A DNA stretch of 64,000 bases from Lentisphaerae bacterium RIFOXYA12_FULL_48_11 (GCA_001804885.1 MHBM01000243.1:28119-92118); one strand, 5' to 3'; shown: positions 23,506-64,000, numbered from the stretch's first letter. Notes: generated from the letters alone by a model not told the origin. Program-made: numbers and translations.

Positions 23506-26244
23506 TCATGGATTATTTTCAATTTTTTTGTCGAGAATTTCTTTTTGTATCCTCATATCAATTTGTTTGAGATTTTTCTCAAACTTTTTGTCATTTCTCT
23601 TAATGAAGTCAGCTATTGCTGGATCAAGATTTGAAGTCATAGGCATGCCAGGTATTGTATTTCCACTTACATTTAGGGTGGGATTGACCGGAATCTTCTC
23701 CACCTCTGACATATTTTCGATATCCGGAGATTGGACATCAGCCATCTTTTTCCTGTTTTTGGCTTCAGACTCAAGCTTCTTAACAGCAGATCTTGCATTC
23801 TTTTCCAGCTCTCTTTCCCTTTTCTCCTCCTCGCGGATTTCTTCTTTTGTAGGTTGCCCCATGTTGCTATTGGACCACCCCCTGCTCCAGTTGCCGTCAG
23901 TACCGAGTGCGGCCTGCCTTCTGAGCGCATCAGCCTCGATCTCGTCCGGTGAATCCATCACATATGGTGTAAGGAAAACAAGTATTTCGTGCCGTGTTTT
24001 ATTTTTCTCACTAGATCCAAACAACAAACCAAGCAGCGGAAGATCGCCAAGAACTGGTATCTTGGAATGATTGATAGATTTATTTTCATTCGCGAGGCCT
24101 CCCAGAACTATAGTCATTCCACTCCTTACGGAAACCGAAGCCTCAAACTTGTTCTGCTGCATTACAGGCCATAAAACCCCATCTTTACCAATCGCCTGTT
24201 TATTGTCAGCATTTGATATTTCCTGAGATATATCCATATACACGTTACGCTTGAGATTGATATGCGGGGTAACGGAAAGCTTAATACCAACTGATTTCAT
24301 ATCAACATTATCAACAGGATTATAACTTCCTATACCAGTCGAGACGTAATTCTGCCCCTTGTAGAAATATTTTTCGGTAGTCACATCAAGGGTGGCTTTT
24401 TTGTTGTCTGTAGTTAATATTATTGGAGATGAAAGAACCCTGGACCTCCCATCCTTTGCACTCATCCTTGCAACAATGTCGGCATTAAGCCCGTAATATG
24501 TCAGGTAATACGTTAACCCAGCACCAGGGGAAAAAGGTTTTGTAAGATCAGACAGACTCGCTGTCTGCCCACCACCACCACCACCACCGGCAAAACCAAC
24601 TAATGGCTTCCTTGATCCATCACTGTTCTGGTTGTAAGCAACCAATGACCGCTGAATCCAGTCAATGCCGGTCTGAATTTCATTACTCAAGTTCACATCA
24701 AGGATTAGAACTTCTATCAACACCTGTGAAACAGACATATCCATTTCTTTGATAATTTCCTCGATAGTTCCCATGTCCAGACGGCTGGCCATAATAATCA
24801 GCGAATTGATTCTTTTGTCCGCCAGAATCTTGATATTTTGAGCAGATAATTCGCCCATTTTTGATTTAAGCCCCTCACCTCCGGCAACACGTGAAAGAGC
24901 TTCACTCTGCTGTTTGGCGAACTCATCAAGTGCAGCACTTCTAGTCTCTTTTCCCGTTGCTGCATCGACCTTCCCTGCAACACCTGGCTTTCCAGATTCT
25001 TTCTGCTGTTGTTGAGCACCTATCAACGTATTCAGCATTGTTGCAACTTGCTCTGCGTCCGCGAATTCCAACCTCATAACTTTAACCATAACATCAGGTT
25101 CTGTCGGCACATCCAAAACTTTTACGATTTTATCAAAAAACTGCATGTTTTCAGGCCTGGTAATAATAATAAGGACGTTCGTTCGATCATCAGCGACTAT
25201 TTTCACCTTACCGCGTATAATACCTCTCTCAGCCTCATCCATTATTCTTGCGAGGACAGACTCTGCCGTAGATGCCACTGCATCAGTTTTACCTGCAGCA
25301 ACTGTGGGTCGTATAACTCCGGGTGGAGCAATGGGTGGCGTATAGGTCGGAGTTGAGGGGGTTCCTGTTACAACCCCAGGCGATCCACGATCCTTTGTTC
25401 GTGGTATCGTGGACTGATCTTTCTGAGATTCCTGAATTATTTCTTCAAGTTTCTGTTTGATCAGAGAAGCTTTTGCATGCCTTATTGCAACAACTTTCGG
25501 CTCTTCCCGTGATTCGATAGGCTGATCAACATATTTAAGTACATCAAGAATTCTGCTTACATTTGCGCCTGTATCGGTTAGAAGAATACAGTTAGTCCGC
25601 TCAAATGCATGAATCTTCCCGTATGGATGATGGAATTTTAGTGTGTCAATTAATTTTGATGCTTCTGCAACATCGATATTTTTCAATTGTATCATCTGGC
25701 TTACAAGTTCATCGGTATCCTTTAATGTTGTACTCTCATCAAAATCCCTTATCCCCATTCCCTCCTGTCTTACAGAATCAATCGGAACAACCTTGAGGAA
25801 TTTATCGCCAACTTTGACCAAGCCAATACCATTCATTGCCAGTACAGTTTCAATGGCCTGCAGATATTCATCCATTGTCAACTCGCCTTCGTTACGAAGC
25901 GTTATTCCTTTCGCAGGCGCCGGCAATTTGGGATCAAGAAGAAGTGTTCTTTTGGTTGCCTCGCTATAATCCTTTAGTATCATTTCGAGTTTGGCTTCCT
26001 CATATTTCAACTGCGGAGCAGTCTGGTTAGTGGTGGCTGACTTGGCTATAGCAGGAATCGCTGGTGTCCGCGCTGGAATGGCTGTATTCGGTATGGGTAC
26101 ACCCGGAGGGACCACCTGAGCAGGAGCAAGCAGTATTATCCAAAACAATGCGATCATTCCACAGAAGAAGCTTAAATTCAGGTTTCTTCTGCTATTTTGC
26201 ACGTTTTTTCTCACCGTTATTTTTTTTCTGTTTTGCATATGCAC
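23506..26244 (-). CDS. gspD: type II secretion system secretin
   Basis: Signal-peptide-like N-terminus, N-domains, and a secretin core ending in IPVLGDLPLLGLLFGS...ILVFLTPYVM. 912 aa with extra linkers and a charged tail. Confidence 0.9.
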   Translation of the reverse strand: MHMQNRKKITVRKNVQNSRRNLNLSFFCGMIALFWIILLAPAQVVPPGVPIPNTAIPARTPAIPAIAKSATTNQTAPQLKYEEAKLEMILKDYSEATKRTLLLDPKLPAPAKGITLRNEGELTMDEYLQAIETVLAMNGIGLVKVGDKFLKVVPIDSVRQEGMGIRDFDESTTLKDTDELVSQMIQLKNIDVAEASKLIDTLKFHHPYGKIHAFERTNCILLTDTGANVSRILDVLKYVDQPIESREEPKVVAIRHAKASLIKQKLEEIIQESQKDQSTIPRTKDRGSPGVVTGTPSTPTYTPPIAPPGVIRPTVAAGKTDAVASTAESVLARIMDEAERGIIRGKVKIVADDRTNVLIIITRPENMQFFDKIVKVLDVPTEPDVMVKVMRLEFADAEQVATMLNTLIGAQQQQKESGKPGVAGKVDAATGKETRSAALDEFAKQQSEALSRVAGGEGLKSKMGELSAQNIKILADKRINSLIIMASRLDMGTIEEIIKEMDMSVSQVLIEVLILDVNLSNEIQTGIDWIQRSLVAYNQNSDGSRKPLVGFAGGGGGGGQTASLSDLTKPFSPGAGLTYYLTYYGLNADIVARMSAKDGRSRVLSSPIILTTDNKKATLDVTTEKYFYKGQNYVSTGIGSYNPVDNVDMKSVGIKLSVTPHINLKRNVYMDISQEISNADNKQAIGKDGVLWPVMQQNKFEASVSVRSGMTIVLGGLANENKSINHSKIPVLGDLPLLGLLFGSSEKNKTRHEILVFLTPYVMDSPDEIEADALRRQAALGTDGNWSRGWSNSNMGQPTKEEIREEEKRERELEKNARSAVKKLESEAKNRKKMADVQSPDIENMSEVEKIPVNPTLNVSGNTIPGMPMTSNLDPAIADFIKRNDKKFEKNLKQIDMRIQKEILDKKIENNP
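24569..24586 (-). repeat. (GGT)6 trinucleotide repeat inside gspD (poly-Gly)
   Basis: The plus strand reads CCA x6, then CCG. It encodes AGGGGGGGQ in the secretin. Confidence 0.95.
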
Positions 26245-38012: not shown

Positions 38013-38103
38013 GGAGAGGTGGCCGAGTGGCCTAAGGCGCAGCACTGGAAATGCTGTGTGCTCCTAAAGGGCACCGTGGGTTCAAATCCCACCCTCTCCG
38101 CCA
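38013..38103 (+). tRNA. tRNA-Ser (anticodon GGA), CCA encoded
   Basis: Acceptor stem GGAGAGG/CCTCTCC, anticodon stem-loop CAGCA-CTGGAAA-TGCTG, a long variable arm, a T-arm GGGTTCAAATCCC, discriminator G, and an encoded CCA. Confidence 0.95.
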
Positions 38104-49196: not shown

Positions 49197-50471
49197 ATGC
49201 AACCCATGACATCCATAATTAATGCCGTAAAAAGTAAACTTGGCGAGCTTGGATGGGGTGCACTGGTTGTTTTCATTATCTTCCGCTTTAACGACCTAGC
49301 CAGCATGTTCTATAAATTCTATATGGGGCATTTACTGCCGAACGCTGATTATGGTGCTCTTGATCCAGTCTACGCTGCAGCCACACTGTTTTCTATTCCT
49401 GCTGTAGCAATCTTCATGGTGGCCACCAAATCTATAAGTCGCCTGGATGCCATGGGAATGCAAAAAGAGAAGAACGCTTTGATTGCTGATTTGTTACGTA
49501 TGACTTTTGCCGGCAGCGTAGTTGCATTCATCGCAACCTTTGTTTTTCAATCAATTATCATTAACCGGCTCCATCTTTCTGGTCAATATTCATATATATT
49601 ATTTCTTGTCGTTCTTCTTATGTGGTGGCAACCAATGGCAATGGCTATATTTCAGGGAGAACGAAATTATACTTTACTTGCATTAAATGCTCTTTTCTCG
49701 GCAATAGTGCTGATCTTCGCATCAAGGCTACTGGTTGTTAATTTCGGATTTGGTCTGCATGGTGCGTTTCTTGCAAAAATCATAAGTGGCTGTGTTGTTC
49801 TTGTCATCTTAACGCTCTCTCTCAACAAACTTAAGAGAAATGTTCACGCTGATTATCAAAACGAGAAGACTGTCATGCGCGAGACCTTAATACCAATAAT
49901 GATATATCAAGCCTGTATTGTAGCACTTTTCCATAGTGATAAATTATTCGTAAGGAATTTTCTCTGTCCTGACTCGGGTGGATATGGTGCAATCGCAACA
50001 CTTGGCTCTATACCTGCTTACTTTATCAATGCCATGTCATTTGTCGTATTCCCCCTTGCTTCTGCGGATCATGCTGAAGGAAAAACAATGGTGAGATATT
50101 ATAAACAAACCATAATGTTATGCTTCGCAGTAATGATCACATGCTCGGGTACATTTTATTATCTCGCTCCGATTATTATTAAATTATGGAATACATCTTT
50201 CTCCGCTTATGCCGGCTATGTATGGATATATTCCGCCGTTATGAGCATCCATGGAGTTATTGTTGTATTCGCCAGCATCGAAATTGCATCACACAGATAT
50301 AAGTTTCTGTGGTTTATGGCGCCGGCCTCCTTGGTTACAGTCATAATTCTTTATTTATTCAGAGCGCAGTTAACTATTCCTGTAATTATTTCATGTTTAT
50401 TCGTCGTAAATGTATTTATCGCCAGTAGCCTGATATACTCAGCCACCATGAGATATAAGAACGCTCAGTAG
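49197..50471 (+). CDS. MOP/Wzx-like polysaccharide exporter (flippase)
   Basis: 424-aa polytopic membrane protein, with at least 10 hydrophobic segments by eye. Its size and pattern fit polysaccharide-biosynthesis (Wzx-type) transporters. Confidence 0.65.
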   Translation: MQPMTSIINAVKSKLGELGWGALVVFIIFRFNDLASMFYKFYMGHLLPNADYGALDPVYAAATLFSIPAVAIFMVATKSISRLDAMGMQKEKNALIADLLRMTFAGSVVAFIATFVFQSIIINRLHLSGQYSYILFLVVLLMWWQPMAMAIFQGERNYTLLALNALFSAIVLIFASRLLVVNFGFGLHGAFLAKIISGCVVLVILTLSLNKLKRNVHADYQNEKTVMRETLIPIMIYQACIVALFHSDKLFVRNFLCPDSGGYGAIATLGSIPAYFINAMSFVVFPLASADHAEGKTMVRYYKQTIMLCFAVMITCSGTFYYLAPIIIKLWNTSFSAYAGYVWIYSAVMSIHGVIVVFASIEIASHRYKFLWFMAPASLVTVIILYLFRAQLTIPVIISCLFVVNVFIASSLIYSATMRYKNAQ

Positions 50472-51201: not shown

Positions 51202-53478
51202 CTACTTGACCTCAAAACGTTTCCGAAAATAAATAGTCTTACCTGCCGGCCAGGATATTGGATGATAAAGCAATTGCTTCTGATTCTGAGCATTAATAAA
51301 TGCATTAGGTTTGAACTGAAAGTAAGGCATCCAAGGTAGTGGCCCGCCGCAAGGACTGTTTGACCAGGATGAATCGTCAAAATTTACCGCATTCCAACTT
51401 GGTGTCTCGGCCTCTGACATCTTCCATGTACTATCGGTCCACATTTCCATTGAATGCCCTCGGAGATACATGGAAACCCAAGGATCTCGATGTGTACCAG
51501 TCACCTCAGCACATACAACATGAGTACCAGGGATAAGAACAAGTGGAATAACGCTCGCATTTATAAAATCGTCCCCAGCCATTACCAGGTTTCCATCATA
51601 GTAGATTCTTTTAGCGCCATTAATATGAGCCAATAAATACCCATTTGTCAGAGACGAATTGAACCAATTCAGTAATTTTGCCTGACTACGAACAGTTTCG
51701 CTATTTGCAGTCTTTTCGAATTCTTTATAAACTTCTTTTGAACGCGTATTCAAAATCCCCAGTCTTTCCTGATATGCAATAATCCTTAATTGCATCATTT
51801 CTGCCTCAGCAGTTCCCGCATATTTCTCAGCATACTCTTTACAATAATCAATTGCATCGGAGAACAAACCTAACCGCTCCTTCTCCCACAATTCACAGAA
51901 GAAAGAATCTTTCTCGAGAGGATCACGCGGAATATGACGTTCACAAACGTTCGGCATTGTTTCATTACAAGCACCAGGAGTTTGCATGTAATAATATGCA
52001 ACGCTCGACATATAACCGCGCGATACATTATTACCATGAGGACTACTACCAAACTCGATATTCATCTTAAAGGACTTTGCAAAATTGACAGGGTCCGGAA
52101 GATGGAACCTGTATTGGGTTGTTCGGATGCCTGATCTTTCCAATACTGCAGCCAAGGGCGATTGGAAAATCCCATAATTATAATACCACCCACCGTTGAA
52201 ATAATCTTCAAGGCCTGTCCCATGTAGCGAAGACATTACCTCACCATCCAGAAACATAGATTCATCGCTTTCGAGAATATTCCATGAACCGTCCATCCCG
52301 ATAGATGTAAGATATGTACCTGCATAATGACCTGCGCCTTGAACTGAGATAATATCATGAGGTTTGCCAGGAGTATGGCTCTGGTTCCAAAATGCATGGA
52401 AGTACCGCAATCGAGTATCCCAGTGCTTGAGTTTATCAGATCGTGCAACAATCTCCATTTCTAACGGAATACTACTTTCGTTATGTATTTCTATTCGCAT
52501 TTGTTGCCGAAAAGGCATCGGGAATCTGGATGTGAATGAACTTAAATGCCGGGAAAGATACATGGAATTATAAGTTGTCAATCTAACCCCATTGCAAAAG
52601 AAATCACCAAAAGGTACTTCGACACTAGGACTCTGAGCATTATTCCAAAATATTCGCAGAACCAACTCTCTGAGGAGACGATTTCTGTTATTAACAGATA
52701 TTTCTTTAGGAAATTGTAAATTGAAATCCAGTTCATGGACAATAGCAGGACCCTTTTCTTCCCAAACAGCGGTCTTTGTCATAGGTTGCAGAACAATCCT
52801 TTTCCCCGTAATCCCCTCCGGCTGTGAGCGCATACGCAATGTGTTTATTGAAATATTGTGCCAACAATTAGAAATATCCTCAAATTTCCATCGCAGTCTC
52901 TCGGCTGTTTCCATGCTGAATGATTCCACACCAACATTATTCGAGAATGTTTCATAATTAACCTGATAAAAGAAACAGAAGGGACCAGGCAATGGTTCGG
53001 CTGTAATAATCAGACGCTTCTTGAACAACAATGGGACATAGGATATTCCGGCGCCGCTTGGATCATGTGCCAATGGTATTATAAATGGAAATCTCTTTGC
53101 ATACCGCAAGTCGCCACACGTAATAATAAGAGACGGCGCCTGTTCTCCATCAAATCTGAAATATAGTTTGGCATCGGGATGCATACCGGTGAACCAAAAC
53201 CTTCTGACACATCCGGGACCTGTTAGATCGGCTATTATCGGCCGGCCGTCGTCCCCGAAACGTTGAAACGAGTGGCCGTCGTTGTTGCCACCGGAACGAT
53301 CATAGCTGGACTCCATTCTAACTATTCCAAGGGGGGCATATGCTATCTGAGAATAATTTGTTAAATCATTTAAGCACGACTCGAGATCCATTTTGATGGG
53401 AACATTTTGACTACATCCCGAAAGAATAATATTTAAAATAACAAATAAGTAAAAAGCTAGATTGTAACACTTCGGCAT
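51202..53478 (-). CDS. lipoprotein with DUF2961 / GH172-like domain plus a C-terminal beta-rich domain
   Basis: Lipobox ILSGC. The core block GAGHYAGTYL...ESDESMFLDGE...HGTGLEDYFNGGWYY resembles the DUF2961 (CAZy GH172) signature. About 250 extra C-terminal residues end in YFRKRFEVK. Confidence 0.65.
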   Translation of the reverse strand: MPKCYNLAFYLFVILNIILSGCSQNVPIKMDLESCLNDLTNYSQIAYAPLGIVRMESSYDRSGGNNDGHSFQRFGDDGRPIIADLTGPGCVRRFWFTGMHPDAKLYFRFDGEQAPSLIITCGDLRYAKRFPFIIPLAHDPSGAGISYVPLLFKKRLIITAEPLPGPFCFFYQVNYETFSNNVGVESFSMETAERLRWKFEDISNCWHNISINTLRMRSQPEGITGKRIVLQPMTKTAVWEEKGPAIVHELDFNLQFPKEISVNNRNRLLRELVLRIFWNNAQSPSVEVPFGDFFCNGVRLTTYNSMYLSRHLSSFTSRFPMPFRQQMRIEIHNESSIPLEMEIVARSDKLKHWDTRLRYFHAFWNQSHTPGKPHDIISVQGAGHYAGTYLTSIGMDGSWNILESDESMFLDGEVMSSLHGTGLEDYFNGGWYYNYGIFQSPLAAVLERSGIRTTQYRFHLPDPVNFAKSFKMNIEFGSSPHGNNVSRGYMSSVAYYYMQTPGACNETMPNVCERHIPRDPLEKDSFFCELWEKERLGLFSDAIDYCKEYAEKYAGTAEAEMMQLRIIAYQERLGILNTRSKEVYKEFEKTANSETVRSQAKLLNWFNSSLTNGYLLAHINGAKRIYYDGNLVMAGDDFINASVIPLVLIPGTHVVCAEVTGTHRDPWVSMYLRGHSMEMWTDSTWKMSEAETPSWNAVNFDDSSWSNSPCGGPLPWMPYFQFKPNAFINAQNQKQLLYHPISWPAGKTIYFRKRFEVK

Positions 53479-53500
53479 GATAAATCTCCCATTATTATTC

Positions 53501-54559
53501 TTAAAGAATATTTAGATATTTTGAACATCGCTTACAAAAGGGTGTCGGGTCAGTAATCATTTGCCTACGGAACGACATTGCACGGTTCCCGTTCCAAATA
53601 TCATTTATATCTTCAGTAAAGATATTTCCAAAGCTGTAATCACGTATCATCTCACTATATGCACCAAATTGGGGTAAAATACAGCATGGCAGCACATCAC
53701 CAAAAACCGTAATGTATGGATATACCCATGGATAGAAGCATGAAGACTTCATGATGCACGGCTGTGGTATTGAAATCTCCACCTTATTCTCTTCGGCATA
53801 CAACTTGATTCGGCGGAATATATCTTTGATGGTTGCGCCGTGACAATCATACAAGGAGGCGGTATTCTGAGAAAATACATCATGGACATTTTGAAAAGTT
53901 ACACCGGAAATCGATGGATATCGTGACGCCAGATCAACAACCGATCTTACGTTATTCAGATCGTCAAGCAAGTCCTTGACCAGAACCGTATTCAGGTATA
54001 TCAAGATTTCCGAGTTCGAACTTATTGCAGCATTATCAAGCAACCTTAAATTTTCCAGCAACTTTTCAATGCTGCCCCCCAGGCGGATCTTTTCATAAAT
54101 TCCAGGCACAGCACTTTCAATTGAAATCGTAATACTTCTCAATGATGTTGAGAGCAGTGAATTAATACGGTCCTCTGTCATCAACAAACCATTGGTAATA
54201 AAACCAACATCTATCCCTCTTCTAGCGGCCAGGCCAATCAGCTTCTCAAGGTCATTATTTAGTAGCCCTTCTCCCATTCCCGTAAGGTTTATTCCCTTCA
54301 GCGTGCCAAGCTTATCTAAAATATACTCAAACTGTTCAGGTTTTAAGAAAGCTTTCCGCGTACCTTTGTTTAGTCCGCACATCCGGCAATGCAAGTTACA
54401 TACAGAAGAAGGCTCGATCTGAATTTCAACAGGAAGAGGTAATTGTAATTTCCTGAAATAGGCGCCCTGATAATTCATTAAAGCTTTTATCGCTACTCGC
54501 AATCCGTACTTTGACATTACGTGAAGAATGTTCCGCGCACCTTTAAGAAGGAAATTCAT
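53501..54559 (-). CDS. radical SAM enzyme with reduced SPASM/twitch-type C-terminal Cys motif
   Basis: CNLHCRMC is the CX3CX2C motif. GMGEGLLN is a SAM-binding motif. The C-terminal CX12GX4C (CFYPWVYPYITVFGDVLPC) is followed by a terminal CKRC. Confidence 0.85.
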   Translation of the reverse strand: MNFLLKGARNILHVMSKYGLRVAIKALMNYQGAYFRKLQLPLPVEIQIEPSSVCNLHCRMCGLNKGTRKAFLKPEQFEYILDKLGTLKGINLTGMGEGLLNNDLEKLIGLAARRGIDVGFITNGLLMTEDRINSLLSTSLRSITISIESAVPGIYEKIRLGGSIEKLLENLRLLDNAAISSNSEILIYLNTVLVKDLLDDLNNVRSVVDLASRYPSISGVTFQNVHDVFSQNTASLYDCHGATIKDIFRRIKLYAEENKVEISIPQPCIMKSSCFYPWVYPYITVFGDVLPCCILPQFGAYSEMIRDYSFGNIFTEDINDIWNGNRAMSFRRQMITDPTPFCKRCSKYLNIL

Positions 54560-55812
54560 AAAATACGATGCTCCATCTGATCATTAAAGATGGATTTGAA
54601 TATTACATCAGCACGTTTATCCCAATCCCATTTCTCCTCAATCAGCGCAAATGCATCATTAGATAACTTTGAATACAGAGCCTGATCGTTGAGAAGTTTT
54701 AATATGTTTGCAGCGAAATCCGACAAGTCCCCAATCTTCGTTTTAAGTATACCTTTGGGATAATAAGTTTTCAATGCATCAAGATCATACGAAACACCTG
54801 GCAACCGCCACGCCATGCCTTCCGCAGCCGCCATGCCACCGCTGTCATATGTAGCAGGATGAAGCATTAGCCTGCTATTCTTGAATACTTCATATTTTGG
54901 TTCCCCATCAAGAAACCCAAACAATCTAACGTTTTTGGTAAGGCCATAACTATCAATTTTTTGTCGCACCTCTGCCTCCAAAGGTCCTACACCTATCATC
55001 GCCAATTGCGCGTCTGGTTTGACCTTACAAACGATTTTCCATATTTCAATAAGATCTAGAACCCCCTTCTGATAATGAAAACGTCCCAAAAAGCATGCAT
55101 CATATTGTTTTTGTTTGTCCTGAACGACCTGATTTGATGAGAAATATTTTTTCGATGGGCAGACATCAACCCCTCCCTGAACAACAATCACTCTTGATGA
55201 ATCTATTCGTCCTGATACAAATCTACTTACATCAGGAGCGGAAGTAACAAGAACATAATCTGCATATCTCCGGACAACAGATAGCGTATATTGCTGCATA
55301 AGCCAGTAAAGTAATCCCCTGAACCTTTGAATCCCCTTATATGGGGATTCGGATGCCCATGGAGATGGAGCGAAAAGAAAATATGACGCAATCCACTTTA
55401 TTCTCTTAAATCTTTTCTTAACATCATATGCCGGGATCAGATCAGGAAAAAAATCCGATAAAGAGTAAACATAATCGCAATCCTCTATTAAACTATTATT
55501 CTTACGGAAATAATTGACGGCTATAGCGGTTCGAGTCATTGCATGCTTTGCAAGGGTAATCGGGCTGTGTAAAATATTCTCAGGCGTTTGGCTCGCAGGG
55601 GAAATGACATGGCATTCAACACCAGAAATACCATATCGCACCATGGCATTTATTGTATGCTCATCAGCGCATACTTTTAATCTGGCCTTTGATTGCCATC
55701 GACGAACCAATTCCATGAAAATTCGAGACCCGCCGCTCAGGCCGATCATTGGTATGTCGTAATTCCCGACAAAAACTATGCTTGGTTTATCAGAAATAAT
55801 TGGAGTATTCAT
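54556..55812 (-). CDS. GT-B glycosyltransferase (GT4-like)
   Basis: C-terminal GT-B domain FLGRFHYQKG...LHPATYDSGGMAAAEGMAWRLPGV. 4-nt overlaps with both neighbouring genes. Confidence 0.8.
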   Translation of the reverse strand: MNTPIISDKPSIVFVGNYDIPMIGLSGGSRIFMELVRRWQSKARLKVCADEHTINAMVRYGISGVECHVISPASQTPENILHSPITLAKHAMTRTAIAVNYFRKNNSLIEDCDYVYSLSDFFPDLIPAYDVKKRFKRIKWIASYFLFAPSPWASESPYKGIQRFRGLLYWLMQQYTLSVVRRYADYVLVTSAPDVSRFVSGRIDSSRVIVVQGGVDVCPSKKYFSSNQVVQDKQKQYDACFLGRFHYQKGVLDLIEIWKIVCKVKPDAQLAMIGVGPLEAEVRQKIDSYGLTKNVRLFGFLDGEPKYEVFKNSRLMLHPATYDSGGMAAAEGMAWRLPGVSYDLDALKTYYPKGILKTKIGDLSDFAANILKLLNDQALYSKLSNDAFALIEEKWDWDKRADVIFKSIFNDQMEHRIL

Positions 55813-57032
55813 TTAACGTAATGCTTAATGATTAAATCGAGGTTTGCGGAACCAAAATTTCTTTCAGCATATGGCCTGCAATTAGCAACCATTTCCAGAT
55901 ATCTCGACTTATTATTAACAAGCCAAGAAATAGCAGTTTTGATGTTCTCGACCGTCGGATCGACAAGAATAGAAACGGAATCATCCAGTGCATCAGGTAT
56001 ACCACCCTTATTTGCACCGACAACTGGTGTTCCACAAGCGACTGCCTCCATAACAACACGGCCGAGGCCTTCTTCATATTGTGACGGAATACAGAGTAAA
56101 TCAGCAGCACTATAGTACTTCGTCAACTCGTTATTCGGAACAGGTCCGGCATGAATGATGTTCTTATGATGCCTGGAAACCTCGGCTAGCATCTCAGTAT
56201 CTTCACCGATACCAACAAATACAAAATTCACATCAGGCAGTAATTTCGCAACGTTAATCAAGACGCTTGTACCCTTTTTCTGCATGAGTCGGCCGACAAA
56301 CAACACCATAAACTTTTCATCCAGCCCAAGTATTGTCCGACATTTTTCTTTGCCCGCATTTCGAAAGTGGTATAGGTCAACCCAATAACGGTGACGGCTT
56401 AATCGATCTTCAGCAACCCCATAATTACGCATCTGAAGGAATGAAGAATTTGATACAGCCATCACAACATCTGCATGTCGCACAATCCAGCCTGCCACTC
56501 TTTCCGATATTGAGCGTGGAGGCATTTCGTAAATGGCATGAGTACTGAGTATCATTTTTTTCCTAAACAATACCTTGAAAATCACTCCCATAAAACCAGT
56601 ACTGAGTCCCTGTGCATGAATGATATCAATATCTCCGCAGTGTTTTAACAACCACAGGAAAGAACGGATCATCATGTATGGGGCCATGTACAAGAATGCC
56701 AAGAAAGGATATTTTTCAATCTTGTCATACACGCCACCGCTGATCCACTTGAACCGGAAGATTTCAGCACATCTCCCAATACGTTCATATAAAGGTGCAG
56801 GCAGACGATCGACGCCTATAGGCGAGTGAGTTAACAGGAAGAGCTTATAGCCGTTACCATCAAGAGCATAAACGAGATCAGAAAGATGCGTTTCAACCCC
56901 ACCGAGGCTCGGAGCAAATGTTGGTGATAGAATCAATATTCTAGGCTTATACTCCACATGATTGCAGAAATCCTGCCTATCGGATTGTTCACCAACATTA
57001 TCAGCTAAGTTCTTTGGCATACACTTGCCCAT
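55809..57032 (-). CDS. GT-B glycosyltransferase (GT4-like)
   Basis: SLGGVETHLSDL at the N-terminus. FVGRLMQKKG...IPSQYEEGLGRVVMEAVACGTPVV is an EX7E-type motif. Confidence 0.88.
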   Translation of the reverse strand: MGKCMPKNLADNVGEQSDRQDFCNHVEYKPRILILSPTFAPSLGGVETHLSDLVYALDGNGYKLFLLTHSPIGVDRLPAPLYERIGRCAEIFRFKWISGGVYDKIEKYPFLAFLYMAPYMMIRSFLWLLKHCGDIDIIHAQGLSTGFMGVIFKVLFRKKMILSTHAIYEMPPRSISERVAGWIVRHADVVMAVSNSSFLQMRNYGVAEDRLSRHRYWVDLYHFRNAGKEKCRTILGLDEKFMVLFVGRLMQKKGTSVLINVAKLLPDVNFVFVGIGEDTEMLAEVSRHHKNIIHAGPVPNNELTKYYSAADLLCIPSQYEEGLGRVVMEAVACGTPVVGANKGGIPDALDDSVSILVDPTVENIKTAISWLVNNKSRYLEMVANCRPYAERNFGSANLDLIIKHYVK

Positions 57033-57047
57033 GAATCTTCAGAAGGA

Positions 57048-58568
57048 TCATGACTGAAGAACATATCTCCACATAACACGTATTTTCTCTATTACTCCGG
57101 CAATCCCCTGCCCCTGCATAACTTTTAAAATCAAACGAAACTGCCGCAAGAACCAGCGAGGATTAGTAAGTTTACTTCTGAGCCATCTTTTCATGGCCGA
57201 CTGGTAGAACGCAACAACATCTTTTTGATCCATATCGCAATAACGGACTACAGACTGGTTATTACCGTCATAGTCCTCCCAGTTCTGGCTCATCAATCGA
57301 CCTTCTTTCTTCAATTCGTCATAGAAAGCCGTCCCGGGAAAAGGTGTCGCAATACTGAATTGCGCAGTATCACTGTCAATTGACATAGCTAACTGCATTG
57401 TTTCTTCCATGGTCTGTCGAGTCTCTCCTGACAATCCGAAACAGAATGTGGCATGAGTCTTGAGTCCAAGCCGAGCGGCTATCCTGCAATTCTCAACGAG
57501 TTTTGATCGATTTATGGGCTTGCATATACGCTTCAACACTTCATCGCTTCCACTTTCCACTCCGAATTTCAGGCCTATGCATCCTGCCTCTCTCATTTTA
57601 ACCAGCATTTCCTCGTCTGTAATCATAAAATCAGCCATTGCAGACCAGTAAACACGTTTATTTAAATCTCGGCGAATCATTTCATCACAAAACTGCATTA
57701 CATGCTTCTTGTTCCCTGTAAAAGTGTCATCATCAAAATATATTTCCCTTGCACCATACTTAGCAATCACTTCTTCAATCTCGTTGCATATCAGGCCAAC
57801 ATCCCTGCTACGATATGCCGCATTACAGTACATCACCTGATTCCAAACACAAAAATTACATCTAAACGGACATCCTCTGGAACCGTGCATTTGCACCGCT
57901 GGTTTGTACTGGCAAAATGAATCCCAATAGACATCAATATCAGGAATCTTGTTCGATGGAAATAAATGACGGGCCGGAAATGGAAGCATATTGATATCAA
58001 TGACTCCAGTAGACTCCTGAAGAACTAATTCATGGTTCTTCACGTATGCAATACCAGGAATAGAAGAAATATCCACTTGATCTCGCAAAGCACGGACAAG
58101 AGCAGAAAAATTAAATTCATATTCTCGAAGCAGAATAAAGTCAATCACACCAGGAGCAAGACTAATAGTCTCTTTGGGCAACGCGGTTGCATGGAAGCCT
58201 GCCATACAGATTTTTATTTCAGGAATTTGCGCTTTTATTCTGGTAGCCATATCGACATCATGCCTAATACAGCCAGTTGCTGTCTCAAAAAGCATGATAT
58301 CCGGACGCAGAGCAAATACTTTCTCCAGAAACAATGATTCAGCGTCATTAAGAGCTATACTATCCTCCACGAACACTTCGACATTGCCCTCCCTTTCCAA
58401 TAAAGCTGCAGTGTATGCAAGGTAAAATGGAAACGGCATATACAGTGATTTCTTGGACTTTTGCTTAACAATAGAAAAAGGCCAGCGCGAGCCAGCGCGA
58501 ATGTAGAATTGTTCCTCATTCTCGTTAATCTCATTTCGATAGACAGGATTTGCTAATAATACTTTCAT
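57048..58568 (-). CDS. cobalamin-binding-domain radical SAM enzyme (class B type)
   Basis: N-terminal Rossmann-like domain (KVLLANP...KICMAGFHATALP), then GSRGCPFRCNFC (CX3CX2C). 506 aa. Confidence 0.82.
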   Translation of the reverse strand: MKVLLANPVYRNEINENEEQFYIRAGSRWPFSIVKQKSKKSLYMPFPFYLAYTAALLEREGNVEVFVEDSIALNDAESLFLEKVFALRPDIMLFETATGCIRHDVDMATRIKAQIPEIKICMAGFHATALPKETISLAPGVIDFILLREYEFNFSALVRALRDQVDISSIPGIAYVKNHELVLQESTGVIDINMLPFPARHLFPSNKIPDIDVYWDSFCQYKPAVQMHGSRGCPFRCNFCVWNQVMYCNAAYRSRDVGLICNEIEEVIAKYGAREIYFDDDTFTGNKKHVMQFCDEMIRRDLNKRVYWSAMADFMITDEEMLVKMREAGCIGLKFGVESGSDEVLKRICKPINRSKLVENCRIAARLGLKTHATFCFGLSGETRQTMEETMQLAMSIDSDTAQFSIATPFPGTAFYDELKKEGRLMSQNWEDYDGNNQSVVRYCDMDQKDVVAFYQSAMKRWLRSKLTNPRWFLRQFRLILKVMQGQGIAGVIEKIRVMWRYVLQS

Positions 58569-59731
58569 AGAGCAAGAAAGACTTCTCCGACAATTCGTTC
58601 ACCGATATTGTTCCAATTCATTTCATTTTCCGCAAGTTTACGAGCATTAGATGCTATTCTTTCAGAAAGCTCGTCGTCATTCAGAACCTTGATCATATTT
58701 TCAGCCAACTCAAAAGCATCACTCGGATTAGACGTTAACCCCGCATTATAACGTTCAAGATATCTTTTTACTTCGCCAACCGCATTGGAGACGATTGGTC
58801 GTTGCGCACACAGGTAATCTCCTAACCTCATAGGAAAGCGTGCATGTTCTATTGGATTGTTTTCCATGGGCAATATTAAACAGTCGGCGGCACCAAGGTA
58901 TAAAGGAACACGATCAAACGGTTGTGCTCCCTCGAAAATGACAGCCGCCTTGATATTCTCAAGCAAAGAACTATACTGCGGCCCCACATTGCAATCCCCA
59001 ACCATCACAAGACATACGTCATCTATTTCTTTCTTAACTATCTCAAAAGCTCTAAACATTACCCCTACACTCTCGGTATATGTATTCCCTATCGACACAA
59101 AGTATCTTCGTCCAGGCAGCAATCCCAAGGATTGCTGTGCACTTATTTTTTCAATCACCGGAACAGATTCCACCGCTGCTCCATTAATGACTTTGATCTT
59201 GGGTGCAGTTATGCACTTGATAGCATCAATTCGGGCTCCTATCGACTCGGAAACATATGTAATTCTGTCAGCATATCTCAGAAAGAATACCTCACAGAAT
59301 GACAAAACAGCTCTCACTGCAGAACCATGCATATCCGCAAAGCCACCGCCCCACATATCATCCCAGTCAATGATTAGAGGCTTCCTCCTCAATGTCTTTG
59401 AAATCCATGCGGGAATTCCAATCTGCGGCTGTGCCACTGTAAAAGCATAACAAACGTCGAAACGGCCAAATAAAACAATAAAAGCTGTTAGAAACAGGCG
59501 CAATATCTGCCCCGAAAAATATTTATGGTATTTAAATCTCGGTAGCGTAACTATTGTAAACCCTTTTGCAACAGATTTACGCCTTATTTTGAAGTCGCAA
59601 GTTGAACCTGATGCACAGATCATACTCACATCGTAACCCAATCGCACTAATTGAGATCCAATATTCTTACAACGCCAATAAGTGCCAAACCATTCCTGGT
59701 TATGATTTATTATTAGAATATGCTTTCTCAT
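58565..59731 (-). CDS. GT-B glycosyltransferase
   Basis: ILIINHNQEWFGTYWRCKNIGSQLVRLGYDV at the N-terminus. The C-terminal domain has VGDCN...LILPMENNPIEHARFPMRLGDYLCAQRPIV. Confidence 0.75.
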   Translation of the reverse strand: MRKHILIINHNQEWFGTYWRCKNIGSQLVRLGYDVSMICASGSTCDFKIRRKSVAKGFTIVTLPRFKYHKYFSGQILRLFLTAFIVLFGRFDVCYAFTVAQPQIGIPAWISKTLRRKPLIIDWDDMWGGGFADMHGSAVRAVLSFCEVFFLRYADRITYVSESIGARIDAIKCITAPKIKVINGAAVESVPVIEKISAQQSLGLLPGRRYFVSIGNTYTESVGVMFRAFEIVKKEIDDVCLVMVGDCNVGPQYSSLLENIKAAVIFEGAQPFDRVPLYLGAADCLILPMENNPIEHARFPMRLGDYLCAQRPIVSNAVGEVKRYLERYNAGLTSNPSDAFELAENMIKVLNDDELSERIASNARKLAENEMNWNNIGERIVGEVFLAL

Positions 59732-59740
59732 TTACCTTCT

Positions 59741-60835
59741 TCACGAACATCTGAAACAAATTGGATGAGGGCGCGACTTTCTTAGAATTCTGAATTTTAC
59801 AGCTCTATCACTGTTCCATATTTCCGACAGTCTCTGAGTCCTTACATTGCCAAGCGAATAATTATGACAAAGGAACACTTCGCCATACGCATCAATCAAC
59901 ATCCCGGAATAGAGAGAATTGCAATATTTTACATCAAAGGGCATAGAGGAAAAGTATTTTCGATAGAACGCATGATCAGCATTTTTATATACATCGACAT
60001 TTTTGTTCTTTTTCGCATTATCCAGGAACTCTATATATTGTTCTATCTTGTTTGAAATAAACGTATAATTATCAGGAAGCTTCACCCCAAAAGGTTCACC
60101 CGAATATTGATAACGTTCTATGAAGTCTTTCTGTTCAGACGGCAAAGACTCCATGTAAAAATGTACTGGATAAAAAGAGAGTTTATCCCATCTCAATTCT
60201 TGAAACAGGCCAAGAATCCGTTTCGGAACCCGCAAGTCATCTTCCAGATCAATGTGGCAGGAAACATTAACCCTTGGATATGCCGACCTTATCCTCGCCC
60301 TTACGTTTAGCATATTTATTAATCCCGTCACAGCTGATGATGAATCGACATTATCCTCATTGGCTCCTGCAAGGTGAGACGAATCCAGTGATATTGATAT
60401 AAAATCAAGTCCTGCCTTTATCAAATCTTCCGCAACTCGTTCCGTCAATAAACCTCCATTCGTCGCGAGGTTACAGATCAATCCCCTTGATTTTGCATAG
60501 CGAATCATGTCACTGACATCATCGCGAATCAGAGGTTCACCGCCGCCAAAGGACAATATCGAGGAAAAACCAGCTATTTGATTGATCAACACATGATACT
60601 CTTCGAGGGAGAGCTCTTTTTGAATTGAAGCATCAACACCGCAAGCTTTCTTGGCATAGCACATTGCACACCGAAAATTGCATCGCATGCTCGGGCAAAC
60701 AATTACAGTTTCAGGAAACAAGCTTCTACCATGCATAAAATGGTAGTCAAACTTCATTCCCCTGAGTATTCTTTTTGCAACCAATTGAACCATTTTACAA
60801 GGATGACTCAGGGCCAATTTAAAATAATACCACAT
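59741..60835 (-). CDS. radical SAM enzyme with reduced SPASM/twitch-type C-terminal Cys motif
   Basis: CNFRCAMC is the CX3CX2C motif. FGGGEPLI is a SAM-binding motif. The C-terminal CX12GX4C (CNSLYSGMLIDAYGEVFLC) is followed by a terminal CFRC. Confidence 0.85.
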   Translation of the reverse strand: MWYYFKLALSHPCKMVQLVAKRILRGMKFDYHFMHGRSLFPETVIVCPSMRCNFRCAMCYAKKACGVDASIQKELSLEEYHVLINQIAGFSSILSFGGGEPLIRDDVSDMIRYAKSRGLICNLATNGGLLTERVAEDLIKAGLDFISISLDSSHLAGANEDNVDSSSAVTGLINMLNVRARIRSAYPRVNVSCHIDLEDDLRVPKRILGLFQELRWDKLSFYPVHFYMESLPSEQKDFIERYQYSGEPFGVKLPDNYTFISNKIEQYIEFLDNAKKNKNVDVYKNADHAFYRKYFSSMPFDVKYCNSLYSGMLIDAYGEVFLCHNYSLGNVRTQRLSEIWNSDRAVKFRILRKSRPHPICFRCS

Positions 60836-60855
60836 ATTATTTCCTGATAATAACG

Positions 60856-61560
60856 CTAAGGTTTTCTCGCCTCAACATGAAGGCTTCCCGTCATGTGTAC
60901 ATCCAGTTTTTCAACATCATCCATTTCACCCTTCCGGAAATCACACAAATTGATATTTATGAATCCAGCATACCTCAGCAACGCACACATGCTTTCATAG
61001 TCATACATCCACTTGTGATGACGAAGGAAATATTCGGTAAAACGTCTCTTGAATTTCGGTTTCACAGACATATTCATGTCAACTGGAAGAAATTGAGCAG
61101 AGAACCAGTCGCATCGCGTAAACGATATACAACAGTCATCAGGCAACGGAGGATCAAAGTCGTCGCTCGTCGAGAGGTATTTTTGTGCAATCTGTTTTCC
61201 ATCAGGAACCACAACCCTGATCAACCCTCCTGGCTTTAAAACACGATACGCTTCTTTAAGCATTGCAATAACTTCATGACGGTACAGGTGCTCCAGGAAA
61301 TGACTTGTATATACACAATCAACGGCATTATCTCCCTTTGGTATTCCCCGACGACAATCATGACATACAACAGGAGGCCACTTTAGGCCCAGGTACCCTG
61401 GCACGAGCAAACCAAGTCTTACACATACTCTAATTAAAAAAGGAAAACGTGAAAAACGTGCAACAATTGAATTATCATAATTCAACCATTGAGGCAGGCC
61501 TGAAAATCCACTGCCAAGATTTATTTTAACTTTTCCACAACCTGTCTGTGAAGAATTCAT
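60856..61560 (-). CDS. SAM-dependent methyltransferase-like protein
   Basis: INLGSG, SHFLEHL and LKPGGLIRVVVPD blocks are typical of Methyltransf_11/23-type enzymes found in glycan loci. Confidence 0.7.
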   Translation of the reverse strand: MNSSQTGCGKVKINLGSGFSGLPQWLNYDNSIVARFSRFPFLIRVCVRLGLLVPGYLGLKWPPVVCHDCRRGIPKGDNAVDCVYTSHFLEHLYRHEVIAMLKEAYRVLKPGGLIRVVVPDGKQIAQKYLSTSDDFDPPLPDDCCISFTRCDWFSAQFLPVDMNMSVKPKFKRRFTEYFLRHHKWMYDYESMCALLRYAGFININLCDFRKGEMDDVEKLDVHMTGSLHVEARKP

Positions 61561-61566
61561 AACCCC

Positions 61567-62769
61567 TCAAGCTTTAGTACAACCATCATCGATCAACATG
61601 CCAATTCTGTCTCTATAGGCTTTTTGAGCCATTTCGTTTTGTTCTTTGACAAACTTTGCAATATTAGCCTGAAAATCGATCATGGATTCATTCATGGCAA
61701 GTCCTAGGACATTAACCAGGGCTGACTCATCAACCGGTATGATATACCCTAAACTTAGTTGCCGTATTGTTCCCGCAAATTCGGTAATATCCGAAGCAAT
61801 AACCGGGAGTCCAAATGAAAAATACTGAATAATCTTTGTCGGAAAACCATAATAGGAATAATTCTCTGTCCCAACGGTCCTGTACAACGCAAACCCCATA
61901 TTACAACGTGAAACTATCGTATCGAGTTCGGGGCCAGGCAAAATCATACCATGAAATGTGACCATCTTTTCCATCCCGTATTTCTGTACATATTCCCTAA
62001 GATGCGACACATAGTCACTATGGCCAACGATATCCAGATGGATTGACGCCTTTGTTCTTGAATAAATTTGATACATACCCCTTATCAACATTTCAAGACA
62101 ATGGTCTTCCCTCGGAATTCCTATATAAAGAATCTGTATACCATCAGTATTTCCACGTTTTTTAGGAATTTTAAAAGCCATGGGATACTTAAGCATCTTG
62201 TTCGCATTCAGCAAATCAGCAGCATATTCCGCACGTATCGCATTCAACCGGTCAGACACACTCCACACCATATCTGCGTTTCGCGCACAAATAATATCCA
62301 ATCTTTTGTAAATATGTTTCCTGAAAAGTCTCTGCAAGAATGACAGACTTGTATCATGCCACGGGAACCAATCCCCACAAAAGTATACGACCTTTTTAAT
62401 CATGCCTTTGCCGCGTAGGCGAAGAGCCCAGGTACACATGTAGATTGAATCAGCAACCACAACATCGATTGGAGGCGTGATACAGGAGAAGACTTTCCTG
62501 AAAATAAGATAACCATTCAGCAATGGTCGCAAAGGTGATGGAACGTAACCAATAGGAAACTCTTTTGATACACGGCGCTCACCATCGAAGTATATAAACC
62601 TACACTTCTGGTTGATGGACGCAAGGAATAGTGCAGGCACATAAGAATCACGAAGAAAATCAAAAATACATTCTTCGTTATTACCTCCCCCCGCTACGCA
62701 TACAATTTTTGGCTTAATCATTGATATGTTACCAATTGTTTCAAATAAAAGATGCAACGGTCGAATCAA
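61567..62769 (-). CDS. GT-B glycosyltransferase-like protein
   Basis: Two-domain size (400 aa). The C-terminal block YIGIPREDHCLEMLI...YGFPTKIIQYFSFGLPVIASD resembles a GT-B donor-binding domain. The assignment is weaker than for the other GTs. Confidence 0.65.
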   Translation of the reverse strand: MIRPLHLLFETIGNISMIKPKIVCVAGGGNNEECIFDFLRDSYVPALFLASINQKCRFIYFDGERRVSKEFPIGYVPSPLRPLLNGYLIFRKVFSCITPPIDVVVADSIYMCTWALRLRGKGMIKKVVYFCGDWFPWHDTSLSFLQRLFRKHIYKRLDIICARNADMVWSVSDRLNAIRAEYAADLLNANKMLKYPMAFKIPKKRGNTDGIQILYIGIPREDHCLEMLIRGMYQIYSRTKASIHLDIVGHSDYVSHLREYVQKYGMEKMVTFHGMILPGPELDTIVSRCNMGFALYRTVGTENYSYYGFPTKIIQYFSFGLPVIASDITEFAGTIRQLSLGYIIPVDESALVNVLGLAMNESMIDFQANIAKFVKEQNEMAQKAYRDRIGMLIDDGCTKA

Positions 62770-64000
62770 AATTTATTGTTGATAAACTCCCGCACAAGCA
62801 AGCCTACCCCACGCAGGTAATCAAGCTTGCGTTGTGAGTGACATATTGTACGCCAATATTTGGGAGAAACGTAGAAGCGGATATGTGGCCAGACTTTATT
62901 CTGCGTCCGCCAGTGCTTGTGGACCCATACTGACAGATCGATATTATGCTGCGCAAAACGCAACGACTTTATCATCCCATCAGAGCCTGGGTTAGCAAAA
63001 CTGAGTAATCCATATTCTTCCCTTGTGAATTTACGGTCCCAGTTATTATATATTTCAGTGCCGGGATATGGAACAAAAGTATTAATTGCAACAATTTCCG
63101 ACTTTAACCGTTTTAATAATTGCAGAATATCTTCAAGATCCTGCTCCTGCTCCTGAGGCAGATTCACCAGCATGTTTGCATATGTTCGAATTCCGTACTT
63201 ATGGCAAATATCAAAAACATTTATAATTTCTTCAATAGTAATACCTTTCTTGATCAACTTGAGGGCACGGTTAGACCCGCGCTCGACACCAAATTCAATC
63301 TGGATACATCCGGCCTCTGCCATTTTCTTTATCATTTCCTCGTCGAGTGTTGATACCTTTGAAATACAACTCCATGGCATTTTAATATTATCCCTGAGAA
63401 TGAGGTTGCAAAAATCGATAGTATTTTTCTTATCAAGAGTAAAAAGATCATCGAGGAAAAGAAAGGCATCAACTTCGTACTTTTCCTTAAGTAGTTTCAC
63501 CTCAAGAAAAAGACTTTCGGCAGTGCGCATTCGCAGGTATTTCGCACCACCCGAGGCTTTTCTAACATATTTCGCCACACAAAATGTGCATTGCGATGGA
63601 CATCCACGCCCACCCATGATATGGGCAGCCCTGAGCAAAACACCTTTAATGGCATACGGAGAAGCGGTCGAGTAATACTGCATATCCACCAAATCGTACG
63701 CAGGAAAGGAAATCGAATCTAGATCATGAACAATATTCCGTGGTCTTGTCTGAATCATTCTTCCTGAAATGTCGTCGTAAAAAGCTATTCCATCGACTTG
63801 AGCATAATCAGATTGACTGCTAAGAATTTTTTTCGAAAGATCACACATGGTAATCTCGCCATCACCGATGACGGCAAAATCTATCGGTCGTCCAGGTTCT
63901 TCAAAAATACTTTCCGGATAGAGTGTTGGGTGCGCCCCCCCTACAACGATTTTCACGTTCGGATTTATTGCCTTGAAACGGTTTGCTAGATTCGTAACCT
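62766..64000 (-). CDS. cobalamin-binding-domain radical SAM enzyme (5' end beyond the window)
   Basis: The frame stays open through base 64000 (…VTNLANRFKAINPNVKIVVGGAHPT). GGRGCPSQCTFC is the CX3CX2C motif. 4-nt overlap with the downstream GT. Confidence 0.8.
   Translation of the reverse strand, partial: VTNLANRFKAINPNVKIVVGGAHPTLYPESIFEEPGRPIDFAVIGDGEITMCDLSKKILSSQSDYAQVDGIAFYDDISGRMIQTRPRNIVHDLDSISFPAYDLVDMQYYSTASPYAIKGVLLRAAHIMGGRGCPSQCTFCVAKYVRKASGGAKYLRMRTAESLFLEVKLLKEKYEVDAFLFLDDLFTLDKKNTIDFCNLILRDNIKMPWSCISKVSTLDEEMIKKMAEAGCIQIEFGVERGSNRALKLIKKGITIEEIINVFDICHKYGIRTYANMLVNLPQEQEQDLEDILQLLKRLKSEIVAINTFVPYPGTEIYNNWDRKFTREEYGLLSFANPGSDGMIKSLRFAQHNIDLSVWVHKHWRTQNKVWPHIRFYVSPKYWRTICHSQRKLDYLRGVGLLVREFINNKF

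Follow-up and report, generated by a model that had tools for sequence, protein, structure and literature searches.

Two genes in a stretch of DNA from Lentisphaerae bacterium RIFOXYA12_FULL_48_11 (GCA_001804885.1, MHBM01000243.1:28119-92118; 64,000 nucleotides (nt), hereafter the window) encode radical S-adenosylmethionine (SAM) enzymes, which we call rSAM_A and rSAM_B. The analyses presented here indicate that both proteins very likely belong to the twitch class of radical SAM enzymes, and that they probably tailor a sugar within an operon presumably dedicated to a methylated glycan. The two genes and their cluster-binding segments are located as follows.

53501 to 54559, minus strand: rSAM_B, a 352-amino-acid (aa) radical SAM enzyme with a C-terminal twitch-type domain (Pfam Radical_SAM 2.9e-17, SPASM 9.6e-15)
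54377 to 54400, minus strand: radical SAM cluster motif of rSAM_B, CNLHCRMC (C54, C58, C61), invariant in 19/19 homologues
53525 to 53740, minus strand: twitch segment of rSAM_B, C274-X12-G287-X4-C292, C293 ... C342-X2-C345; five Cys invariant in 19/19, four of them aligning with BtrN
59741 to 60835, minus strand: rSAM_A, a 364-aa radical SAM enzyme with a C-terminal twitch-type domain (Pfam Radical_SAM 9e-17, SPASM 1.1e-13)
60659 to 60682, minus strand: radical SAM cluster motif of rSAM_A, CNFRCAMC (C52, C56, C59), invariant in 61/61 relatives
59747 to 59923, minus strand: twitch segment of rSAM_A, C305-X12-G318-X4-C323 ... C360-X2-C363; four Cys invariant in 61/61

A previous reading of this DNA, made from the sequence only, had described one layout for both proteins, and each of its elements was located: the CX3CX2C radical SAM motif (C54-X3-C58-X2-C61 in rSAM_B and C52-X3-C56-X2-C59 in rSAM_A), a GGE-type SAM motif (GMGEGL at residues 94-99 and GGGEPL at residues 97-102, respectively), a CX12GX4C segment starting at residue 274 or 305, and a terminal CX2C. 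The CX12GX4C segment corresponds to the first half of the seven-Cys SPASM motif (CX9-15GX4C). After the last CX2C, rSAM_B (C342-KR-C345) continues for seven residues, SKYLNIL, and rSAM_A (C360-FR-C363) for a single S before the stop. Within the last ~85 residues we counted six Cys in rSAM_B (268, 274, 292, 293, 342 and 345) and four in rSAM_A (305, 323, 360 and 363), which agreed with the earlier counts (about four and about six). The CX2CX5CX3C block, previously described as missing, was matched by a regular-expression search in neither protein, and the second half of the SPASM motif (CX2CX5CX3C ... C) was also absent from all the cluster-linked relatives examined. In the Pfam comparison, PF04055 scored 63.8 bits for rSAM_B and 62.2 bits for rSAM_A (cut-off 29.5), and both proteins exceeded the curated cut-off of the Pfam SPASM model (PF13186), which stops at the CX2C and cannot tell SPASM from twitch. 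The motif and Pfam matches of both proteins are well beyond chance.

A full SPASM domain is defined by the seven-Cys motif CX9-15GX4C-gap-CX2CX5CX3C-gap-C and binds two clusters, whereas a twitch domain is a shortened SPASM that binds one cluster and consists of a beta-hairpin followed by a helix (PMC6231123). In the twitch enzyme BtrN, the cluster is fully ligated by four Cys, of which two flank the hairpin and two follow the helix (PMC6231123). Comparison with the SPASM profile TIGR04085, which the sequence-only reading had proposed, gave a partial match to rSAM_A just below the cut-off (26.8 bits against 27; model positions 1-65 of 93 only) and no match to rSAM_B at E <= 0.1; the tail of rSAM_B matched the twitch part of NF033640 instead. 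AlphaFold models, also proposed there, placed a hairpin between the first Cys pair and a helix before the last pair in both proteins. Specifically, the rSAM_B model (pLDDT, the predicted local distance difference test, of 90.3) has strands 282-283 and 288-290 between C274 and C292 and a helix at 325-336 ahead of C342/C345, and the rSAM_A model (pLDDT 73) has strands 311-314 and 319-321 between C305 and C323 and a helix at 343-354 ahead of C360/C363. This hairpin and helix arrangement is the canonical twitch layout (PMC6231123), and the alternation of strands with helices in both models fits a partial (beta/alpha)6 barrel. Since the proteins stop one (rSAM_A) or seven (rSAM_B) residues past the CX2C, they offer no canonical ligands for a second auxiliary cluster. 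The earlier suggestion of a twitch rather than a full SPASM domain is thus upheld by the BtrN-like Cys spacing, the early end of the proteins, the partial or missing TIGR04085 match and the modelled hairpin and helix.

Further conservation analyses showed that the putative ligands were retained in both families. Among the 19 members of the rSAM_B family (30-69% identity to rSAM_B), C274, C292, C293, C342 and C345 were invariant and C268 was variable. Close relatives of rSAM_A were few, with just 15 representatives at E <= 1e-30 among 1.84 billion; when rSAM_A was compared with its 60 best full-length relatives, the four C-terminal Cys were invariant in 61/61 sequences, as they were in 21/21 of a second set. 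Loss of these residues among homologues had been set beforehand as grounds for abandoning the twitch reading, and it was found in neither family (19/19 for rSAM_B, 61/61 for rSAM_A).

The sequence-only reading had also called the two proteins paralogous. The two do share ancestry and twitch layout, but the relationship is distant (65.8 bits; ~30% identity in an N-terminal stretch of 115 residues and 43% in a C-terminal one of 49), and each has closer orthologues in other genomes, at 39-69% identity for rSAM_B and 40-46% for rSAM_A. More than 150 database cluster representatives were nearer to rSAM_A than rSAM_B is (the 150th-best scored 91.7 bits). By these comparisons, rSAM_A and rSAM_B represent two old lineages and did not arise by local duplication. 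One database copy (P0023; 288 aa) matched residues 1-288 of rSAM_A exactly and had no twitch domain; it is probably a contig-end fragment of another assembly. The rSAM_A gene is intact (364 aa) both in the window and in the full contig (L124).

Among solved structures, BtrN gave the best sequence match to rSAM_B, at E 1.7e-10 when the single sequence was searched and 1.6e-17 when the family profile was; the alignment spanned core and twitch domain alike. BtrN is the 2-deoxy-scyllo-inosamine dehydrogenase of the butirosin pathway (PDB 4M7T), acts on a non-peptide substrate and, like rSAM_A and rSAM_B, combines a radical SAM core with a C-terminal twitch domain. Residues C274, C292, C342 and C345 of rSAM_B aligned with the four twitch Cys of BtrN, and rSAM_A has the same spacing; this spacing, CX12GX4C ... 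CX2C, is identical in the three proteins and allows a fully ligated single auxiliary cluster. The differences are also clear: BtrN has ~250 aa and an abridged barrel, whereas rSAM_B (352 aa) and rSAM_A (364 aa) carry a 40-aa N-terminal helical extension; the rSAM_B family profile matched BtrN with only 67 bits in two short stretches; and rSAM_B has an additional invariant Cys (C293) relative to the BtrN pattern. All genes between 43.4 kb and the end of the window, plus those in the following 10 kb, were annotated, and none encodes a 2-deoxy-scyllo-inosose (2-DOI) synthase. Orthology with BtrN was therefore rejected, on account of the missing 2-deoxystreptamine pathway context and the low similarity. 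Regarding BtrN, named in the earlier reading as the best-known twitch enzyme with a carbohydrate-like substrate, the four-Cys pattern and the rank as best solved relative of rSAM_B stand, but the dehydrogenase chemistry is one of several options.

The rSAM_A family profile retrieved SkfB as the best PDB match (8.8e-24), and also BlsE, CteB, PqqE, MoaA and BtrN. When the two models were searched with Foldseek, the top matches were SuiB, DesII, CteB, BlsE, BtrN, SkfB, MoaA, SpeY and AbmM, all of them SPASM/twitch or sugar-acting enzymes. Within this group, SpeY (a dehydrogenase, 7WZX), AbmM (8WM2), BlsE (7VOB) and DesII (8HZV) are sequence or fold relatives of rSAM_A and rSAM_B, and together with the epimerases HygY and NeoN they exemplify radical tailoring of carbohydrates with one auxiliary cluster or none. 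Their substrates are small-molecule antibiotic intermediates of actinomycete secondary metabolism, and there is no evident orthology with rSAM_A or rSAM_B, the similarity lying mostly within the SAM-binding core. To our knowledge, every characterised sugar-acting twitch radical SAM enzyme belongs to an antibiotic pathway of a cultured actinomycete or bacillus, and we know of no enzyme of the SpeY, HygY, NeoN, AbmM, BlsE or DesII type that is coupled or fused to glycosyltransferases in a glycan-assembly operon.

Both genes belong to an 11-gene operon that reads, from the far contig end, TylF-like O-methyltransferase, B12-binding radical SAM enzyme (B12-rSAM), GT400, MT234, rSAM_A, GT388, B12-rSAM506, GT407, GT418, rSAM_B and GH172. 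The operon runs on beyond the window end (62766-64000 and onwards, L124 7751-10004), where the TylF-like sugar O-methyltransferase precedes the cut B12-rSAM gene. Across 51202-63956 the gaps between genes are at most 22 nt throughout, and four junctions are 4-nt ATGA or TTGA overlaps. The other operon genes in the window, in the order of transcription, are the following.

62766 to 64000, minus strand: second B12-binding radical SAM enzyme, crossing the window end (506 aa on the full contig, L124)
61567 to 62769, minus strand: GT400, a GT4 glycosyltransferase (Pfam); a GT4 gene lies at the same place upstream of the rSAM_A orthologues in loci L045 and L046
60856 to 61560, minus strand: MT234, a class I SAM methyltransferase (Methyltransf_11 9.5e-09), syntenic in L001, L003 and L006
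58565 to 59731, minus strand: GT388, a GT4 glycosyltransferase (Pfam), fused to the GT407 orthologue in L043
57048 to 58568, minus strand: B12-rSAM506, a radical SAM enzyme of B12-binding type (class B), 506 aa (Radical_SAM 2.1e-19)
55809 to 57032, minus strand: GT407, a GT4 glycosyltransferase (Pfam 3.1e-30), syntenic in L001, L003, L006, L043 and L046
54556 to 55812, minus strand: GT418, a GT4 glycosyltransferase (Pfam Glycos_transf_1 6.2e-23), translationally coupled to rSAM_B through an ATGA overlap
51202 to 53478, minus strand: GH172 (DUF2961), the last operon gene, 758 aa with a lipoprotein-like signal (LSGC) (PF11175 1.9e-59)

The sequence-only reading had named glycosyltransferase, methyltransferase and radical SAM neighbours; the glycosyltransferases are of the GT4 family, the methyltransferases of class I and the radical SAM enzymes of the B12-binding type, and the GH172/DUF2961 protein comes in addition. 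The presence of a glycoside hydrolase family within a biosynthetic operon suggests glycan trimming or remodelling. B12-rSAM506 matched the Pfam B12-binding model weakly (23 bits, cut-off 32), and its best NCBIfam match was HpnJ (223 bits, cut-off 577), so that it may not be a simple methyltransferase. HpnJ is a radical SAM protein associated with hopanoid biosynthesis. Membership of the GT4 proteins in TIGR04157, the 'glyco_rSAM_CFB' glycosyltransferase family, was rejected (26-61 bits against a cut-off of 400). An Rfam scan of the operon, L045 and L046 for a riboswitch or other RNA control found nothing. On the plus strand, in the window and beyond the far end, lie glmS, glmM, and genes for a PIG-L deacetylase, a DegT aminotransferase, a GFO-type oxidoreductase and a NagB-like protein, together with two NAD-dependent epimerase/dehydratases, a GT2 glycosyltransferase and two polytopic membrane proteins without a family match.

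The same gene associations were found around orthologues in very different genomes. The GT407-MT234-GT418-rSAM_B block was kept in two Gammaproteobacteria metagenome-assembled genomes (MAGs) (L001 and L006) and in a Shapirobacteria MAG (L003), and a GT418 orthologue was located directly upstream of the rSAM_B orthologue in L001, L003, L006, L040 and L042. In L040 to L042, the GT418-rSAM_B pair was accompanied by a convergent B12-rSAM gene whose product is 64% identical to that of the window; orthologues of the second B12-rSAM enzyme, at 56-64% identity, adjoined the rSAM_B orthologues in L040 and L043. The Saccharibacteria locus L043 contained two twitch enzymes, three B12-rSAM genes, glycosyltransferases, methyltransferases and AftD-like GT-C proteins. 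Considering the fetched flanks (up to 10 kb on each side), B12-rSAM genes were present near rSAM_B-like genes in 20 out of 33 distinct loci, and the distant rSAM_B-like genes (25-32% identity) of DPANN archaea and other MAGs had a B12-rSAM gene in their flanks in most cases.

Loci with rSAM_A orthologues were obtained by a metagenome scan with four close sequences. In L045 and L046 the order was methyltransferase, B12-rSAM (43% identical to B12-rSAM506), GT4 and rSAM_A, and GT418 and GT407 orthologues, two more B12-rSAM genes, a methyltransferase and a GT2 gene were found nearby. A more distant locus, L032, contained DegT, GT2, twitch radical SAM, two B12-rSAM, GT9, a third (split) B12-rSAM and radical SAM/SPASM genes. 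Both L043 and L032 encode an rSAM_B-like enzyme plus another twitch lineage, all of them lacking the seven-Cys block. In addition, two rSAM_A relatives (P0054 and P0072; 1134 and 1167 aa) consist of a GT2 domain fused to two radical SAM-twitch modules; other relatives of rSAM_A are tandem fusions of two or three radical SAM-SPASM modules. The loci in which the two lineages are linked to GT4, B12-rSAM and methyltransferase genes belong to candidate-phyla bacteria, DPANN archaea and other uncultivated bacteria. This conserved linkage to glycosyltransferases and the existence of glycosyltransferase-radical SAM fusions strengthen the carbohydrate hypothesis, and we consider a carbohydrate the likely substrate of both enzymes. 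In the literature searched for links of radical SAM enzymes to glycosyltransferases or polysaccharides, in which 'twitch' queries were swamped by twitching motility, none of the publications described the present module.

Two membrane proteins encoded near the operon also have relatives close to radical SAM genes. A 424-aa protein (49197-50471, plus strand) with about nine hydrophobic segments and no Pfam or NCBIfam match has weak homologues that adjoin B12-rSAM and twitch radical SAM genes in Woesearchaeota loci (L021, L023 and L027), and it may be a flippase or polymerase. The second, an 854-aa polytopic protein located outside the window and divergent from the operon (L124 4951-7515), has approximately ten transmembrane segments, a large loop domain and a C-terminal transmembrane segment; neither Pfam nor NCBIfam provided a match. 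In a Verrucomicrobiia MAG, the gene immediately downstream of the rSAM_B orthologue encodes a homologue of it (E 1e-23; L002 1455-3983), and AftD-like GT-C proteins hold the equivalent position in the Saccharibacteria locus (L043). The 854-aa protein may be an unrecognised GT-C-type transferase using lipid-linked sugars.

According to the mechanism that we propose, the operon would assemble and tailor a methylated glycan, and the substrate of the two radical SAM enzymes would be a sugar residue, not a peptide, which could be carried on a nucleotide or a lipid or have been transferred beforehand by the coupled glycosyltransferase. Each enzyme would hold a SAM-cleaving [4Fe-4S] cluster on its CX3CX2C motif and one auxiliary [4Fe-4S] cluster on four Cys, namely the one before the beta-hairpin, the one after the hairpin and the two after the next helix; this stoichiometry we infer. 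The reduced radical SAM cluster would cleave SAM, and the 5'-deoxyadenosyl radical would then take a hydrogen from a carbinol carbon of the sugar. In the outcome that we place first, especially for rSAM_A, the substrate radical would lose an electron to the auxiliary cluster and become a keto-sugar, as in BtrN and SpeY. BtrN takes a hydrogen from its aminocyclitol substrate, and its fully ligated auxiliary cluster has been proposed as the electron acceptor of a two-electron oxidation (PMC9012708, PMC6231123). Such an outcome fits rSAM_A because its family has exactly four invariant C-terminal Cys. Nevertheless, dehydrogenation by these enzymes is put forward tentatively, being somewhat less probable than not.

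Several observations weigh against the proposal. The nearby DegT aminotransferase is already paired with a GFO-type oxidoreductase, so that it does not depend on a radical dehydrogenase for its substrate. The rSAM_A model is of moderate confidence and is poor right around the Cys residues. With respect to BtrN, rSAM_B is 100 aa longer, has a full-length core and shows low identity, and Foldseek ranks SuiB and DesII ahead of BtrN for this protein. All NCBIfam matches of the operon proteins, including rSAM_A and rSAM_B, were far under the curated cut-offs and identified no functional family. More generally, sequence similarity inside the SPASM/twitch subfamily does not allow fold and function to be predicted (PMC6231123).

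Among the alternatives, the enzymes could perform a different radical reaction on a sugar or glycolipid, such as dehydration, decarboxylation, ring contraction, sulfur insertion or C-C bond formation, perhaps in tandem with the B12-rSAM enzymes. The decarboxylase BlsE, DesII and AbmM are among the nearest solved relatives, the twitch and B12-rSAM genes are tightly linked, HpnJ is the best NCBIfam match of the B12-rSAM enzymes, and the large polytopic membrane proteins near rSAM_B orthologues (the AftD-like GT-C proteins in L043 and the homologue of the 854-aa protein in L002) hint at lipid-linked sugar chemistry. However, no sequence feature singles out any of these reactions, and an auxiliary cluster fully ligated by Cys, which would leave no open iron site, suits electron transfer better than substrate ligation or sulfur donation. 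Taken as a group, these reactions are a possible explanation about which we are doubtful.

Another option retains the same enzymes and the sugar substrate and makes the reaction redox-neutral, with a cysteine thiol quenching the radical from the opposite face and yielding an epimer, as in HygY, NeoN and AviX12. Passages of one paper (PMC10991966) describe HygY as a twitch epimerase that a single Cys mutation turns into a dehydrogenase, assign the corresponding role in NeoN to Cys249 and mention a radical SAM epimerase in the biosynthesis of the oligosaccharide avilamycin, the pathway of AviX12. The peptide epimerase EpeE, which was among the fold matches of rSAM_A, has Cys223 opposite SAM across the substrate (PMC13012085). 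Epimerisation is conceivable for rSAM_B, where it is left open by the extra C293, adjacent to the ligand C292 and invariant in 19/19 family members; the same adjacent Cys pair is present in a third cluster-linked lineage (L043_337). In rSAM_A, C121 and C193 are kept in close orthologues, but their conservation across the wider family is only 56% and 38%, respectively, and C293 of rSAM_B may itself be an alternative or redundant cluster ligand. We regard epimerisation as rather unlikely for the pair.

Most characterised SPASM and SPASM-like enzymes act on peptides, and the nearest solved relatives include SkfB, SuiB and CteB; the two proteins might accordingly be peptide or protein maturases, of the type that modifies ribosomally synthesised peptides or of the sulfatase-maturing (anSME) type, with a substrate encoded elsewhere in the genome or represented by a protein of the operon. 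The operon leaves no room for a precursor peptide, as noted in the earlier reading: besides the short gaps between genes, all open reading frames (ORFs) of at least 20 aa across it (51202-63956) overlap a large gene, so that no free small ORF exists. Neither a conserved precursor ORF nor a peptidase or ATP-binding cassette (ABC) transporter, the partners whose discovery in orthologous loci would have spoken for peptide chemistry, was found in the eight loci examined. The comparison of small intergenic ORFs across these loci produced a single match, between L045 and L046 (48% over 44 aa), which was rejected as a precursor peptide; it is the 5' end of a methyltransferase gene of 251-277 aa, and the two loci are 79% identical in DNA. 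Moreover, Pfam identified no peptide-recognition (RRE/PqqD-like) domain in rSAM_A or rSAM_B and no domain beyond Radical_SAM, SPASM and Fer4_12; in the models, two helices of ~40 aa are all that precede the core. In this respect the proteins differ from the SPASM maturases SuiB, CteB, PqqE, AlbA and anSME, with which they share the radical SAM core and the first half of the SPASM motif, and which have the seven-Cys motif, two auxiliary clusters and usually a peptide-recognition domain and an adjacent precursor gene. SkfB, a twitch sactisynthase (6EFN), resembles rSAM_A and rSAM_B in its twitch domain and single auxiliary cluster, but it has an N-terminal peptide-recognition domain, a CXC pair and the peptide SkfA as substrate. 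L046 has a sulfatase gene at 4 kb from its rSAM_A orthologue; however, the operon of the window has no sulfatase, anSME requires two auxiliary clusters where rSAM_A and rSAM_B present the motif for one, and the anSME model matched them weakly, for which reasons an anSME-like sulfatase maturase was rejected. With the GT2 fusions in relatives also pointing to sugars, a peptide or protein substrate appears highly improbable.

Other features of the window are recorded here as observations in their own right. A bacterial class A RNase P RNA lies at 17294-17661 on the minus strand (228 bits), an FMN riboswitch at 22410-22559 on the minus strand (91 bits) upstream of the ORF at 21152-22390, and a tRNA-Ser(GGA) at 38013-38103 on the plus strand. 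The sign of the GC skew flips near 16 kb and near 40 kb, following the strand on which each gene block is coded. Also encoded are a secretin (23506-26244) and a class II B12-dependent ribonucleotide reductase (3206-6157); from these two genes, the host is a diderm bacterium and likely has access to cobalamin.

Altogether, rSAM_A and rSAM_B are uncharacterised members of the known twitch radical SAM class and do not constitute a new kind of enzyme. What stands out is that their coupling to glycosyltransferases and B12-binding radical SAM enzymes is preserved between uncultivated lineages that lie very far apart, the ties of both twitch lineages being evident in operon structure, translational coupling and, in relatives, gene fusion. 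For genome mining, this implies that a Pfam 'SPASM' match alone is no evidence for a peptide natural-product cluster. A broader hypothesis, which we advance with considerable doubt, is that a widespread and hitherto undescribed 'radical glycan-tailoring' module exists, in which twitch radical SAM enzymes coupled or fused to glycosyltransferases act with B12-rSAM enzymes and methyltransferases to oxidise, epimerise or C-methylate sugars of lipid-linked or nascent surface glycans. Such a module would work independently of O2, and possibly of NAD(P), and would provide candidate-phyla bacteria, DPANN archaea and other anaerobes with unusual surface sugars. In one speculative version, it would be a radical route to epimerised polyprenyl-phosphate sugars for the neighbouring GT-C-like membrane proteins. 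If glycan tailoring by these enzymes is true, they would represent compact tools to invert or oxidise unactivated sugar positions, and radical chemistry would be a common and overlooked origin of sugar diversity in the cell envelopes of anaerobes.

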